Of a stretch of DNA of 64,000 bases, positions 2,380 to 12,484 are shown one piece after another. The position numbers and the translations under genes are program-made. Positions within the stretch are counted from its first letter, which is position 1. The number at the start of each line of letters is the position of its first letter. A model generated the notes under the pieces. The model saw nothing but the letters and a program-made list of their open reading frames with translations. It did no database searches and had not been told where the DNA came from. Location of the stretch: IMG/VR virus record IMGVR_UViG_3300044633_001982; one strand, 5' to 3'. Source of the stretch: a virus. Taxonomy: Duplodnaviria; Caudoviricetes.

Positions 2380-3624
2380 ATGAAAATTTTTATCCAAGTC
2401 GCGTCTTATAGAGACCCACAATTAATACCAACTATTAAATCCGCATTAGATAATGCCAAACATCCTGAAAATTTAATATTCGGAATTGCCAGACAATTTC
2501 ATATTGAAGATGGATTTGATAATTTGGATGAATATAGAGGTGATGACAGATTTAGAATTTTAGATATTCCATGTGAAGAATCTAAAGGGGCTTGTTGGGC
2601 TAGAAATCAAATACAACAACTTTATCAAAAAGAAGAATACACATTACAAATTGATTCTCACATGAGATTCGCTGAAAATTGGGATGTTGAAATGATTGAT
2701 ATCATTAAAAAGTTACAGAAAAAAGGACATAAAAAACCTTTATTAACAGGATATGTTCCATCTTTTGACCCTGACGATGACCCAAACTCTAGAGTTATGG
2801 AACCTTGGAGAATGGTTTTTGATAGATTCATACCTGAAGGGGCGGTATTTTTCCTACCTGAAGTAATCCCTGGATGGCAAAGTATGACAGAACCAGTTCC
2901 TGCAAGATTTTACTCAGCACATTATTGTTTCACATTAGGTAAATTTTCCAAAGAAGTACAACATGACCCTGAATTTTATTTTCATGGTGAGGAGATATCA
3001 ATTGCAGCTAGAGCGTACACACATGGTTATGATTTATTTCATATACATAAAATTCTTATTTGGCACGAATATACCAGAAAGGGAAGAACTAAACAATGGG
3101 ATGATGATAAAGATTGGGTAAGTAAAAATGATTATTGTCACAAAAAAAATAGAAGTCTATTTGGAATGGATGGTGAAGAACCAATGAACCATGGAAAATA
3201 TGGATTTGGTAAACAAAGGACATTAAAAGACTATGAAAAATATTCAGGGTTACTTTTTTCCAAAAGAGCAATCCAACAATGGACAATAGATAAACATTAC
3301 CCACCAAATCCTTATAATTTTAATTCTGAAGAAGAATGGATGAATTCATTCTCATCGATTTTTAAACATTGTATTGATTTACAATATTCTCAAGTACCTG
3401 AAAAAGATTATGAATTTTGGGTTGTTGCATTTCATGATGAAACAGATGAAACACTTTTTAGAAAAGATGCCGATAAATCTGAAATTGCAAGAATGATGGA
3501 TGACCCTGATGGTTATATAAAAATTTGGAGAGAATTTAATATGACTAAAAAACCAACATATTGGGTTGTTTGGCCATATTCAGAATCAAAAGGATGGGGT
3601 GAAAGAATAACAGGTAATTTATAA
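2380..3624 (+). CDS. GT60-like alpha-GlcNAc transferase (Gnt1/GlcNAc family)
   Basis: IFIQVASYRD at the N-terminus, GACWAR, YTLQIDSHMRF (DSH motif) and FHGEEISIAARAYTHGYD are hallmark GT60 motifs. Confidence 0.8.
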   Translation: MKIFIQVASYRDPQLIPTIKSALDNAKHPENLIFGIARQFHIEDGFDNLDEYRGDDRFRILDIPCEESKGACWARNQIQQLYQKEEYTLQIDSHMRFAENWDVEMIDIIKKLQKKGHKKPLLTGYVPSFDPDDDPNSRVMEPWRMVFDRFIPEGAVFFLPEVIPGWQSMTEPVPARFYSAHYCFTLGKFSKEVQHDPEFYFHGEEISIAARAYTHGYDLFHIHKILIWHEYTRKGRTKQWDDDKDWVSKNDYCHKKNRSLFGMDGEEPMNHGKYGFGKQRTLKDYEKYSGLLFSKRAIQQWTIDKHYPPNPYNFNSEEEWMNSFSSIFKHCIDLQYSQVPEKDYEFWVVAFHDETDETLFRKDADKSEIARMMDDPDGYIKIWREFNMTKKPTYWVVWPYSESKGWGERITGNL

Positions 3625-3626
3625 TT

Positions 3627-4469
3627 ATGGTTGAAATTTTTGATGGTTACTGTGAAGGATTGAAAGGAGGTCACTTTTCTAGTTACAGAAAAAACTTAGG
3701 AAATAAATTATTTATTTATTCTGTTAGTAGACTTATTGCCGATGAATTAAATTATGATTTAATTGTTCCTGATAATTCATTAATACGTAGAGAAGAATTA
3801 AGTGTTGGTCAATATGTTGAGCAAGTATTCCCATTTAAATCCATTACCGGAAAAGAGTCAATTGAAGGTCCAGTCATCTCAATTGGGGACACTGATGTAT
3901 TAACATTGAATACTGTCGAAAAAATGGTAGACCATTGTCGGGGACATAAAATTATTTCCGCCTCCTATTTTTCTAAGTACGATTATATTAAACCGTACAA
4001 AGAAAAAGTTAGAAATTTTCTTTCAGAAATAGTATTACCAAAAAGAAATGATGACGATTTGGTTTTGATGTTAAGAAATAGTAGAGACGATGGTAGATTT
4101 GTATTGCCTGATGAATATTACCTTAACATTTTGGAAAAAGAAAATTTTAAAAATTTATACGTTTCTTTTGACCATGTCTATAACCATAAAAGTATTTTAG
4201 ATAAATTACAAATTTATAATCCAAAATATATTGAGGGTTCAATTTTAGATGTGTTTAAAGAACTAACATCATTTAATAAAATAATTGCTTGTCAAGGTAC
4301 ATTTTCATTTTGGGTATGTTTCTTATCAAATGCGAGTAAAATATATTGGCCGGTCACTAACGATGGGCCAAATTCAAACAATAAAAATTTTGGAACTCAT
4401 GTTAATTTAAAAGTTGATGATGAAGACCGATATGTTCACATTAAAATTGATGACATTTATAAAAAATGA
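3627..4469 (+). CDS. GT11-like alpha-1,2-fucosyltransferase (divergent)
   Basis: N-terminal LGNKLFIY, LMLRNSRDD (cf. HxRRGD) and IIACQGTFSFW (cf. IIANSSFSWW). Confidence 0.6.
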   Translation: MVEIFDGYCEGLKGGHFSSYRKNLGNKLFIYSVSRLIADELNYDLIVPDNSLIRREELSVGQYVEQVFPFKSITGKESIEGPVISIGDTDVLTLNTVEKMVDHCRGHKIISASYFSKYDYIKPYKEKVRNFLSEIVLPKRNDDDLVLMLRNSRDDGRFVLPDEYYLNILEKENFKNLYVSFDHVYNHKSILDKLQIYNPKYIEGSILDVFKELTSFNKIIACQGTFSFWVCFLSNASKIYWPVTNDGPNSNNKNFGTHVNLKVDDEDRYVHIKIDDIYKK

Positions 4470-10356: not shown

Positions 10357-10370
10357 TGTAAAAACAATAA

Positions 10371-10739
10371 ATGGAATTCTATATTGGTCAAAATACCACT
10401 TTACCTATATTAAAGATGCAAGTTGTTAAAGACGGTAAACACGATATTGACACTATGTTACAAATTATTGAGGAATCTGTATTATACTTTTCAATGAAAG
10501 ACATTAATAATGGAAGTTATAAAATATTAAATTCTTCTGCCGGTTTTGTTGAAAAAATATTTTTAGAACCAAACTCTGATGTTGAATATTATATTTACTA
10601 TAAATTTTCAAAAAATGACACGTCTAAATCAGGAAGATTTGAAGGTGAGTTTTTGTTAAAATCTGAAAATGGAACTCTTTTATTACCAATAAGAGATAAA
10701 TTATTCATAAACGTTACCGAATCAACAATAACCACTTAA
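10371..10739 (+). CDS. Small virion protein, BppU-like Ig/beta-sandwich domain
   Basis: [13 protein letters not shown]...[18 protein letters not shown] resembles BppU-type baseplate domains; paralogous to the N-terminus of the next gene. Confidence 0.5.
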
Positions 10740-12484
10740 TGGAATTTTTTATAAAAAAGAATGCGACGTTACCTTTATTGAAATTTGAAATATTTCAAGA
10801 TGGTAGGAGCGATTTTAATAACATACAAAATTTAAGCGGCGTAACCTCAAGTTATATAACATTAATTGACCCTGTAAATTCGGAAATAAAATTCGCAAGT
10901 AGACCATGTTCAATTGTTACAGGACAATCTGAGTATGATGACACAAAAATACTTTATTTTGTTGAGTATCAATTTAAAAACGAAGAAACAAAAAAATTAG
11001 GTAGATATGTGGTAGAATTATCAATAGTTGATACAAACGGTTCAGTTGTTTTTAAAATAAGAGATAGAGTTTTTGTTAATATAATTGATAGTTTTTCAAT
11101 AGATGGATACTCATTTGCAAATAGTTATGAGGTAGAGTATCCTTGTTGTGACCAAGTATTACCAATACCAATACCTGTAACCCCTCCAAACACACCTTCT
11201 AGCACTGCGACCCCAACAAGTACGGTAACAGTTACTCCAACTGTAACACCAACAACGACCTCAACTCCAACACCTACTCCAGATAATACTAAAACCCCAA
11301 CACCTACTTCTACTCCAACAATGTCCGCAACACTAACCCAAACACCAACTAACACAACTACTCCGACTAATACACCAACAATGACCTCAACATTAACTCA
11401 AACACCAACTAATACACCAACTAATACTCAAACTCCGACAACGACTACAACTCCTACAAATACAAAAACACCGACTAAAACACAAACTCCAACAAATACT
11501 ACTACCCCTACCCCTACTCCAACTGTAACTGTAACTCCTACAAATACTTCAACGCCAGCCATGACCCCGTCCGTAACTAATACGTCAACAGTTACACCTA
11601 CTAACTCAATTACGCCAACAAATACCCCTACTAACTCGATTACACCAACAAATACACCAACAAATACAATAACACCTAGTATTACTCCAACAAATACAGT
11701 AACCCCAACAATTACCCCAACAAAATTCCCAGTAACAACTGTGGTTGGTTCTTTTTATACTTTGGTTTATCCAAATGGTTCAATTTATAATACTGTTTGT
11801 CAATATGTTTACCCTGGCAATTATGTTAACAATTTTACAACTACCACACTAATTACGACAACCCCAACTTCTTGGTATTCAAAAGGATTTTCAACAACCA
11901 CAGGTGAAATTAGACATTTCTATTTTAACGGATATCAGACTATACGATATAATTCAAGTCCTAATTCATCAAATATAAGTTTATTAACTTTATCTGGAAA
12001 TTTTGACAGGTCATTTGTTGCTTTATCAACCACATCTCTTATTGTTTCTAAAAACAATTTTTCAGCAGGAAATGGAAATGAAATAAGACAAATATCTACA
12101 GAAAATTCTAGCTTTACATCACTTGCGGTATTACCATATGGAAGATTTACTACTGGTGGTATAATTAAAACAACAACAAATAGACTTATTGTTATTACGT
12201 CTAATGTTACTAATAACGACTTTTTATTAACTCAATATAATTTAAATTTACCATTGTCAAATCCATCTACAGTTGAAGTACAAATTAATTTAACAAATAA
12301 TATAAGTAACCCTTCAGGTATTTTTGTTTCAAATTCAGAGTTTTATGTATCGTCAGGGACTGGTCAAATTTATAATATATCTAAAACACCTCCGTACACA
12401 ATAACAAATGTTGCGTCATCTAATACACCGTTTAAAGGGTTTGGTCAAAATAGTGATATTTGGAATGTTCATTTTAGTGTGTAA
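10739..12484 (+). CDS. Putative virion appendage: BppU-like anchor, Thr/Pro mucin-like stalk and beta-rich head
   Basis: 581 aa; N-terminal domain homologous to 10371..10739, ~190-aa T/P repeat, and a beta-strand-rich (propeller-like) C-terminus. Confidence 0.6.
11162..11731 (+). repeat. Degenerate coding repeat of TPT(N/P/K)T-type units
   Basis: Translation [40 protein letters not shown]...[22 protein letters not shown]; synonymous codons vary between units. Confidence 0.95.

Follow-up and report, generated by a model that had tools for sequence, protein, structure and literature searches.

What does a row of eight glycosyltransferase-like genes do for a phage, and on which molecule do its products act? 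The question is raised by positions 2380–12484 of a 64-kb stretch of viral DNA (IMG/VR record IMGVR_UViG_3300044633_001982; hereafter the window), where eight glycosyltransferase (GT) candidates, genes GT1 to GT8, are followed by a gene for a protein, P0001, with a long threonine/proline (T/P) stalk. A preliminary description of this DNA had proposed that soluble enzymes led by a member of family GT60 glycosylate neighbouring virion appendages. We compared the block with more than 100 related phages and with bacterial loci, and on this comparative sequence evidence we think it probable that block 2380–12484 is a cytoplasmic protein O-glycosylation module for the stalks of virion appendages, encoded alongside one or more of its substrates. 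We favour protein glycosylation because the flanks of the cluster are conserved, because those flanks persist where the cluster occupies a second genomic site, because bacterial loci pair GT60 genes with (TP)n proteins, and because virions of the cultured carrier XacN1 contain stained glycoproteins. Every comparative test run favours the original proposal, with the qualification that one close relative has no local T/P stalk.

The lead enzyme points to protein as the acceptor. GT1 matches the GT60 profile PF11397 with 218.9 bits (cut-off 21; E 1.7e-64) and, over its full length, the 'glycosyltransferase' family phrog_24687 (E 2.4e-171). Its D92-S93-H94 triplet, a DxH motif, is invariant in 21 phage homologues of 45–91% identity; replacement of DxD by DxH is a hallmark of the polypeptide-glycosylating GT27/GT60 clade (PMC7185993), and the Trypanosoma cruzi GT60 enzyme makes GlcNAc-α-O-Thr on mucins (PMC9472816). 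Past the Pfam domain GT1 carries a conserved C-terminal extension of ∼120 residues, and sequence and profile searches gave no solved homologue. Since GT1 is phage-encoded and without a transmembrane (TM)-like segment, it must act in the bacterial cytoplasm. The same holds for membrane segments throughout the row: no 19-residue window in any of the eight proteins exceeds a Kyte–Doolittle value of 1.2, so that all eight look soluble, in agreement with the preliminary description, which had seen no TM anchor.

This solubility bears on the idea that the cluster remodels a glycan of the host envelope, such as lipopolysaccharide (LPS) core, O-antigen or capsule, for example as a superinfection block or a surface change. 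A review of jumbo phages reads GT clusters as outer-polysaccharide modification, proposed for jumbo cyanophages (PMC7824862). HtrL_YibB, the family of the N-terminal half of GT8, is moreover a bacterial family by name, and GT25, GT2 and GT9-type families occur in LPS pathways. The E. coli htrL gene itself lies beside the LPS-core (waa) genes. The surface-polysaccharide signature of a membrane initiating transferase, a flippase/polymerase or an ABC exporter is, however, absent from the eight proteins by Pfam and TM scan, and Pfam finds no flippase, polymerase or priming phosphoglycosyl transferase among them. Together with the lack of TM segments, a lead enzyme from a protein-glycosylating family, virion-type flanks wherever the cluster sits, and a type VI secretion system (T6SS) structural locus as the setting in Ralstonia, this makes remodelling of the host envelope distinctly improbable in our judgement.

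The candidate substrate lies directly downstream. The P0001 stalk (residues 142–333) is 192 residues long, of which 88 are Thr (46%) and 40 Pro (21%); it is the only tract rich in Thr, Pro and Ser (T/P/S-rich) in any frame of the window, and repeats in its DNA are loose only. The first ∼125 residues of P0001 (the N-domain) are paralogous to the 122-residue protein encoded by the preceding open reading frame (ORF; 29% identity, E 9e-21). A model of the N-domain built from a 31-sequence alignment (predicted local distance difference test score, pLDDT, 82) was compared with 48,161 chains, and TP901-1 BppU ranked first (Z 8.1, root-mean-square deviation 2.8 Å over 97 residues, 19% identity, against BppU residues 18–126), with the isolated BppU N-domain (3uh8) and baseplate chains of 80alpha, NF5 and Douge among the top ten. 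Independently, Foldseek placed phage baseplate chains first, and in a language-model search BppU_N was the sole named family. The BppU_N profile PF10651 matched neither the 122-residue protein nor the N-domain at E ≤ 10. From the model we take the N-domain to be a BppU_N-like module for attachment to the baseplate or tail, without placing it in the PF10651 family. The C-terminal domain of P0001 evolves fast: it has two near-identical homologues only among 5.8 billion proteins and no match in cultured phages, and is suggested to be a putative distal or receptor-binding tip. The virion-type protein with a ∼190-residue Thr/Pro stalk that had been noticed beside the cluster has a 192-residue stalk on a BppU_N-like N-domain.

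Does this arrangement recur? The window derives from an uncultured jumbo myovirus, given that no cultured phage is close (polymerase identity does not exceed 24% across most of the protein), that it carries contractile-tail genes such as a tail sheath (phrog_23, E 3.9e-56), and that one of its many IMG/VR relatives, a contig rated 100% complete with a polymerase 88% identical, measures 293,850 bp. Scanning IMG/VR with GT1 gave 76 loci, collapsed to 35 non-redundant ones, and scanning with the family-B DNA polymerase (PolB) gave 274. GT1 and GT8 occur together in 66 of 77 loci (XacN1 counted), and the recurrent order is a T/P-rich protein, GT60, variable enzymes, an HtrL/GT-A fusion, a small BppU_N-like protein and a BppU_N protein that may or may not carry a T/P stalk, often with PolB next. 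T/P/S-rich ORFs were found at position −1 from the cluster in 15/35 cases, at +1 in 20/33, at −2 in 7/31 and at +2 in 12/30, as against 15/226 at three or more genes' distance and 0/176 inside the cluster. Flanking genes are thus T/P/S-rich in 54 of 129 cases (42%), distant genes in 7% and inner genes never (Fisher p = 2e-15, odds ratio 10, which is not a true probability because the loci are related). A T/P/S-rich ORF lies within two genes of the cluster in 30 of the 35 loci, and the T/P tracts reach ∼1,000 residues with ∼45% Thr and ∼20% Pro. In the complete 217-kb genome G002, three of seven T/P-rich ORFs stand immediately upstream of GT60, and in genome G001 both genes that flank the cluster are T/P-rich.

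A second set, 80 loci anchored on PolB (polymerases 71–99% identical), is unbiased as to the cluster, and many of its members have no cluster in the 10 kb upstream of the polymerase gene. Among five relatives without GT60 within 10 kb of PolB, four contigs of at least 94 kb carry GT60 elsewhere; the remaining one, an 89-kb fragment, gave no GT60 match. In genome G006 the cluster lies ∼59 kb from PolB, with a T/P protein upstream and, as further neighbours, the small BppU_N protein and a stalked P0001 homologue; in the fragment G009 it lies ∼63 kb away, with T/P-rich ORFs upstream as far as the contig end. The T/P and BppU_N flanks thus persist where the cluster sits away from PolB, and finding them together at another position in the genome speaks for a functional unit. 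G006 also contains, after the GT cluster (L189–L190, G006:C1:148000–184000), an ORF of 4,766 residues, of which 4,273 fall in T/P/S-rich windows; if real, it would be among the longest phage mucin-like tracts known to us.

In many relatives the cluster immediately precedes PolB, and in XacN1 it is close to replication genes; such positions could also suit enzymes that glycosylate modified bases of phage DNA as part of a hypermodification pathway beside the polymerase gene; GT8 indeed weakly matches phrog_842 (hydroxymethylcytosine (HMC) glucosyltransferase, E 0.0086). The displaced clusters of G006 and G009 speak against this, since there the fibre-type neighbours are kept and PolB is not. Moreover, profile scans found no base-hydroxymethylating or -oxidising enzyme beside the GT genes in the 64-kb window, and no Tet/JBP match in five large relatives, although the family's control was also silent; the ThyA family is absent from the complete genome G002, and in G011 and G001 over 150 kb separate it from the cluster. 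The DNA GTs described so far belong to two types, JGT-like GT-A and BGT-like GT-B enzymes, and are linked to 5mYOX or ThyS genes; a preprint on them mentions neither GT60 nor fucosyltransferases. An action on DNA bases is, in our estimation, very improbable indeed.

GT60 genes of bacteria outside phages provide a further view of the acceptor. A scan of one genome per prokaryotic species yielded 507 stretches encoding GT1 relatives, and the pair of GT60 and HtrL genes recurs in Gemmatimonadota, Saprospiraceae, Cytophagales, Verrucomicrobiota and others. On chromosome 1 of Ralstonia sp. 25C, a PF11397 protein (E 3.6e-78) is encoded inside a T6SS locus, in the order TssF, TssG, TssA, a fimbrial-type protein, GT60, then two ORFs to VgrG, then TssM. 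The VgrG protein has Phage_GPD, Phage_base_V and Gp5_trimer_C domains and ends in ∼150 residues of (TP)n; such VgrG tails may, by sequence, be glycosylated. Burkholderiales loci that show a strict T/P ORF resemble this one. Jiulongibacter sediminis has the order (TP)n protein, GT60, carbamoyltransferase, FkbM–HtrL fusion, the carbamoyltransferase directly after GT60 being found also in many phage loci and in XacN1, and in a Verrucomicrobia metagenome-assembled genome (MAG) a (TP)n protein adjoins the GT60–HtrL pair. The Thr/Pro tract, and not any particular folded domain, is thus what these unrelated contexts have in common beside GT60, and we regard this as the strongest reason to see the acceptor in it. 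Two bacterial (TP)n proteins beside GT60–HtrL pairs, at loci L214 and L232 (Table 1), have twin-arginine-like signal sequences, which would permit export after cytoplasmic glycosylation.

Among cultured phages, GT1 has its nearest counterparts in the jumbo phages XacN1, Xoo-sp13, CM1 and RAS14 (46–48% identity). XacN1 ORF334 is a GT60 protein 48% identical to GT1 and is followed by the carbamoyltransferase, a GT6-like (HtrL-type) ORF and a GT8-like HtrL/GT-A ORF; it faces a 3,313-residue protein with a PT linker of ∼30 residues, encoded after baseplate wedge genes. Purified XacN1 virions contain at least two glycoprotein bands that stain with Schiff reagent (PAS), and the authors suggest that the phage's own transferases make them (PMC5852040).

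Several observations weigh against the proposed module. The stained bands of XacN1 were not assigned to proteins in PMC5852040. HtrL_YibB is a family of unknown function, four of the GT assignments are weak, and one GT8 homologue weakly matches the DNA-modifying TAGT family (E 2e-4), a match that also speaks for an action on DNA. A Z of ∼8 for the N-domain is marginal, Ig-like folds being common at that level. In G001, T/P-rich ORFs also occur at 101–112 kb, away from the cluster, and stalked homologues of the upstream protein 688–2343 stay beside PolB when the cluster sits elsewhere. Five of 26 PolB-anchored cluster-bearing architectures have no T/P ORF within 10 kb. In the co-occurrence check suggested at the outset, 30/35 loci have a T/P/S-rich ORF within two genes, and in the PolB-anchored set a T/P ORF lies within 10 kb in 21/26 architectures with the cluster and in 8/11 without it. 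Finally, relative G010 (PolB 98% identical) has the cluster and both BppU_N proteins, its P0001 homologue is stalkless, and the 29 kb examined contain no T/P tract. The preliminary description had named a cluster kept without a T/P-rich protein as the observation to look for against it; G010 fits this locally, whereas T/P flanks are frequent elsewhere. As G010 and a few short contigs keep the cluster without a nearby T/P stalk, T/P tracts are frequent but not obligatory neighbours: they are strongly enriched at the edges of the cluster and are neither exclusive nor obligatory there.

G010 also makes a serious alternative of the view that phage structural proteins are glycosylated with the T/P stalk not the main acceptor. 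The targets could then be the small BppU_N-like proteins, Ser/Thr-rich fibres or other parts of the virion, and the T/P tracts would be plain spacers in the same fibre module. Downstream of its stalkless cluster G010 encodes six Ser/Thr-rich proteins (20–29% S+T) of 468–640 residues; downstream of GT8, no neighbour is more constant than the stalkless 122-residue BppU_N-like protein; and at L113, L132, L142 and L174 only stalkless N-domain proteins are found. We nevertheless consider it unlikely, because characterised GT60 enzymes act on Thr of mucin-like tracts or on hydroxyproline, the positional enrichment is specific to T/P-rich ORFs, and bacterial GT60 loci share (TP)n tails on differing proteins (VgrG and small secreted-type proteins).

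The other enzymes of the row can be named with varying firmness (Table 1; GT1–GT8 without further qualification denote the genes). The eight ORFs are consecutive on the + strand with a spacing of −14 to +4 nt, an operon-like arrangement, and the earlier count of eight GT-like genes with nine domains is a fair description of this tightly spaced row, about half of the labels being soft. GT3 scores 42.3 bits against the GT10 profile (cut-off 23.9), and its N-terminal FucT_N match of 24.3 bits falls under the 27.2 threshold. The N-terminal half of GT8 matches PF09612 (HtrL_YibB) with 58.6 bits (cut-off 24.1), as do 11 of 11 homologues; GT6 is tied to HtrL_YibB solely via hhalign with this half (probability 99.5%, E 4.4e-22), which is the sole link in profile–profile comparison among the nine domains. 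The C-terminal half of GT8 has an invariant E-D-D and a match to family GT2 (E 0.008) under the cut-off, and is probably a GT-A domain; GT8 as a whole is conserved as the partner of GT60 in bacteria as well as in phages. An AlphaFold2 (AF2) model of GT7, from a 22-sequence alignment (pLDDT 89.5), resembles NodZ (E 2.1e-5, TM-score 0.51–0.57), and all its Protein Data Bank (PDB) fold matches at E ≤ 0.001 are fucosyltransferases of the NodZ/FUT8/POFUT2/AtFUT1 superfamily (GT-B; families GT11, GT23, GT37, GT65 and GT68); H161-Y162-R163, invariant in 22 homologues, is a candidate for the Arg-containing GDP-binding motif of that superfamily. GT2 matches a glycosyltransferase PHROG and one GT11 motif. 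The language-model (Atlas) neighbours of GT4 are glycosyltransferase, GT8-family and Nucleotid_trans entries, and those of GT5 are GT8-family, GT6-family, Nucleotid_trans and Mannosyl_trans3 entries; neither protein has a Pfam match at E ≤ 10 or a PDB sequence match. Pfam matches of GT6 and GT7 at E ≤ 10 are at chance level only, and PDB sequence searches with GT1, GT2, GT4, GT5 and GT7 and with GT1 and GT7 profiles gave nothing usable.

Table 1. Features of the window and of bacterial loci (coordinates without prefix refer to the window)
Feature	Position	Strand	Basis
Cys-rich fibre-family protein, 551 aa, no T/P stalk here	688..2343	+	homologue alignment
GT1, GT60/PF11397 putative polypeptide α-GlcNAc-transferase, proposed initiator	2380..3624	+	Pfam, PHROG, DxH; firm
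GT2, probable GT11-like transferase	3627..4469	+	phrog_2644 E 2.4e-4; PF01531 E 0.018; weak
GT3, GT10-family, α-1,3-fucosyltransferase-like	4466..5455	+	PF00852, E 8.6e-11; firm
GT4, putative GT-A fold transferase	5457..6134	+	language-model neighbours; lead only
GT5, putative GT-A fold transferase	6137..6877	+	language-model neighbours; lead only
GT6, HtrL_YibB-like, paralogue of GT8 N-half	6877..7797	+	hhalign; firm for family
GT7, GT-B, NodZ/FUT8/POFUT fucosyltransferase-superfamily fold	7802..8674	+	AF2 model; firm for fold
GT8, two-domain HtrL_YibB + probable GT-A	8661..10343	+	Pfam, alignment
GT8 N-half, HtrL_YibB, residues 5–254	8661–9422	+	E 9.5e-16; firm for family
GT8 C-half, E-D-D (DxD) domain, residues ∼298–560	9552–10340	+	sub-threshold family GT2 match; weak
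122-aa stand-alone BppU_N-like protein (baseplate-attachment fold)	10371..10739	+	fold + language-model similarity
P0001, whole ORF	10739–12484	+	
P0001 N-terminal BppU_N-like domain	10739..11113	+	paralogue of 10371–10739
P0001 Thr/Pro stalk, proposed glycan acceptor	11162..11737	+	composition
P0001 C-terminal domain, ∼248 aa	11738..12484	+	phrog_15511 E 2.7e-8
Fe/Mn superoxide dismutase	16847–17632	−	
Giant ORF, 1630 aa	28956–33848	+	
Giant ORF, 2220 aa	34163–40825	+	
Giant ORF, 1794 aa	53467–58851	+	
Ralstonia sp. 25C GT60	L248:7950–9344	+	PF11397
Ralstonia sp. 25C VgrG with (TP)n tail	L248:10267–13128	−	domains + composition
Bacterial (TP)n protein	L214:6941–7726	−	
Bacterial (TP)n protein	L232:11411–12112	−	

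Between GT60 and the HtrL fusion the cluster varies. Inner ORFs fall into 51 sequence families across relatives; a Pfam scan of representatives of the 32 largest matched, among others, GT25, GT10, GT2, GT7C, PLOD-type GT and GT1-group families, FkbM and rhamnosyl O-methyltransferases and a carbamoyltransferase. Relatives with PolB 97–99% identical have GT60 proteins only 74–80% identical and different middle enzymes, indicating that the cassette is exchanged by recombination. In the comparison of loci L101–L180 with window positions 2380–15368, some relatives have the cluster 15–63 kb away; displacement and the divergence of GT60 and the middle enzymes together mark the island as a recombination hot spot. 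In the window, the set of a GT10 enzyme, a NodZ fold and a GT11-like enzyme points, from sequence and model, to 6-deoxyhexose transfer. For the donors, the preliminary description, having seen no nucleotide-sugar synthesis gene, had expected host sugar pools unless such genes lie elsewhere; this we correct, since a GDP-mannose 4,6-dehydratase-family gene is encoded elsewhere in the genome in 5/5 close and 2/5 distant relatives, so that the donors would be made by the phage rather than drawn from the host.

We propose that, late in infection, soluble GT1 would place the first N-acetylhexosamine (HexNAc), probably α-GlcNAc from UDP-GlcNAc, on Thr of unfolded Thr/Pro tracts. These would sit in fibre-like proteins whose BppU_N-like domain joins them to the tail or baseplate, P0001 being the example here, and in relatives the stalks are up to ∼1,000 and even ∼4,000 residues long. 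The two-domain HtrL/GT-A enzyme GT8 would extend the primer, and the middle enzymes (GT10, NodZ-fold, GT11-like, two GT-A-like and a second HtrL-like) would tailor the chain, probably adding a 6-deoxyhexose of fucose type from a phage-made GDP-sugar. A virion appendage would thereby gain a mucin-like stalk of bottle-brush form, whose glycan would differ from phage to phage because close relatives swap middle enzymes. An initiator–extender–capping order with a fucose cap and a role in shielding or stiffening had been put forward earlier; the GT60 enzyme would be the initiator, and the order, the cap and any such role are putative. A broader proposal, possible rather than probable in our view, is that cytoplasmic mucin-type O-glycosylation is a prokaryote-wide system with GT60 and the HtrL/GT-A fusion as its conserved core. 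Its acceptors would be T/P tracts on appendages of contractile injection machines (phage fibres and T6SS VgrG spikes) and on some exported proteins, and the middle enzymes of jumbo phages would be a glycan-diversifying cassette by which the virion surface differs between phages that are otherwise nearly identical.

If the proposal is true, bottle-brush glycoprotein fibres are carried by jumbo phages of a large, widespread group, and the sugars on them are set by a fast-exchanged cassette, which would bear on adhesion to hosts or particles, protease resistance and surface variation. It would also extend polypeptide glycosylation by GT60 from protists to the bacterial cytoplasm, including type VI secretion spikes.

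Upstream of the row, the protein encoded at 688–2343 belongs to a fibre-like family. Its match to Laminin_G_3 is weak (E 0.042; one of nine homologues reaches 1e-9), and its homologues in relatives have stalks of 114–347 T/P/S residues. The LamG/C1q fibre-like genes described upstream thus survive as a fibre-like family with a weak LamG match; the C1q label of ORF 56–643 found no support in Pfam, PHROGs or a PDB sequence search. Among the nine aligned members of the 688–2343 family (the window and eight relatives), four (L019, L023, L011 and L009) have a papain-like (Peptidase_C1) C-terminal domain, which the window copy lacks.

The window has ∼30% G+C and nearly all its coding sequence on one strand. 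It also encodes a T4-type baseplate protein and a Baseplate_J protein, a gp32-like single-stranded DNA-binding protein, PolB and a DnaB-like helicase, both class I ribonucleotide reductase subunits, a 5′–3′ exonuclease, a SNF2 helicase and an Fe/Mn superoxide dismutase, the last with an N-terminal extension of ∼60 residues and kept beside the polymerase in relatives. Three giant ORFs lie in the tail/baseplate region and have no Pfam match and no T/P tract. A promoter/terminator scan gave signals no better than shuffles, and megablast of block 2380–12484 against 50,697 phage records gave no match. The best 'bacterial' GT60 matches (64–73% identity) stand on MAG contigs L194–L200 and L202, which resemble binned phage DNA; they are labelled Saprospiraceae or Bacteroidetes, have 33–39% G+C, and one, of 230 kb, encodes a P0001 homologue. 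These contigs hint that Bacteroidota are possible hosts of the phages.

How does the proposed module compare with known systems? In full-text literature searches, no paper connected GT60 with phages or reported glycosylation of phage T/P stalks, and we found no published phage system that builds mucin-like O-glycans on its own appendages. With the protist GT60 enzymes (T. cruzi TcOGNT1, Dictyostelium) GT1 shares PF11397, the DxH metal motif and a predicted acceptor: Thr residues within mucin-like tracts rich in Thr and Pro, where other transferases would extend the chain later. Unlike the Golgi enzyme TcOGNT1, GT1 is phage-encoded and lacks a TM-like segment; it also differs in its conserved ∼120-residue C-terminal extension. 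The N-domain model superposes on the TP901-1 BppU N-domain (PF10651; PDB 4v96, 3uh8) and fits 80alpha and NF5 chains as well. Unlike the BppU case, the window virus is a myovirus and its N-domain is followed by a T/P stalk, with no BppU-type C-terminal part.

Giant viruses, among them the chlorovirus PBCV-1 with its capsid protein Vp54, glycosylate virions with virus-encoded GTs (PMC4691112). The proposed module would likewise use soluble virus-encoded GTs and nucleotide-sugar enzymes and need no secretory pathway. PBCV-1 glycans are reportedly N-linked to the capsid protein. These viruses, unlike the window virus, are eukaryotic, and no GT60 or T/P-stalk logic is described for them. In the serine-rich-repeat adhesins of Gram-positive bacteria, GtfA/B add GlcNAc first and other GTs lengthen the chain, and the gene for the substrate stands beside those for the enzymes; initiation there is by a GT4-type GT-B enzyme, on a Ser-rich acceptor that leaves the cell through accessory Sec. 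Accounts of these adhesins describe O-glycosylation on Ser/Thr inside the cell before export (PMC7948813, PMC6973325); the enzymes have no sequence relationship to the cluster of the window.

For phages, virion glycosylation has been reported in mycobacteriophages (Freeman et al. 2023, as cited in PMC12582341). The likeness would lie in phage-encoded GTs that, in the host cytoplasm, modify virion proteins of the same phage. In those mycobacteriophages the GT genes reportedly stand beside structural genes, and few GTs are said to modify capsid and tail-tube subunits. To our knowledge, glycosylation of phage virion proteins has been shown in few cases only. Unlike the mycobacteriophage systems, the module proposed here would be led by a GT60 enzyme, act on long mucin-like stalks of baseplate-anchored appendages and draw on a large hypervariable cassette.

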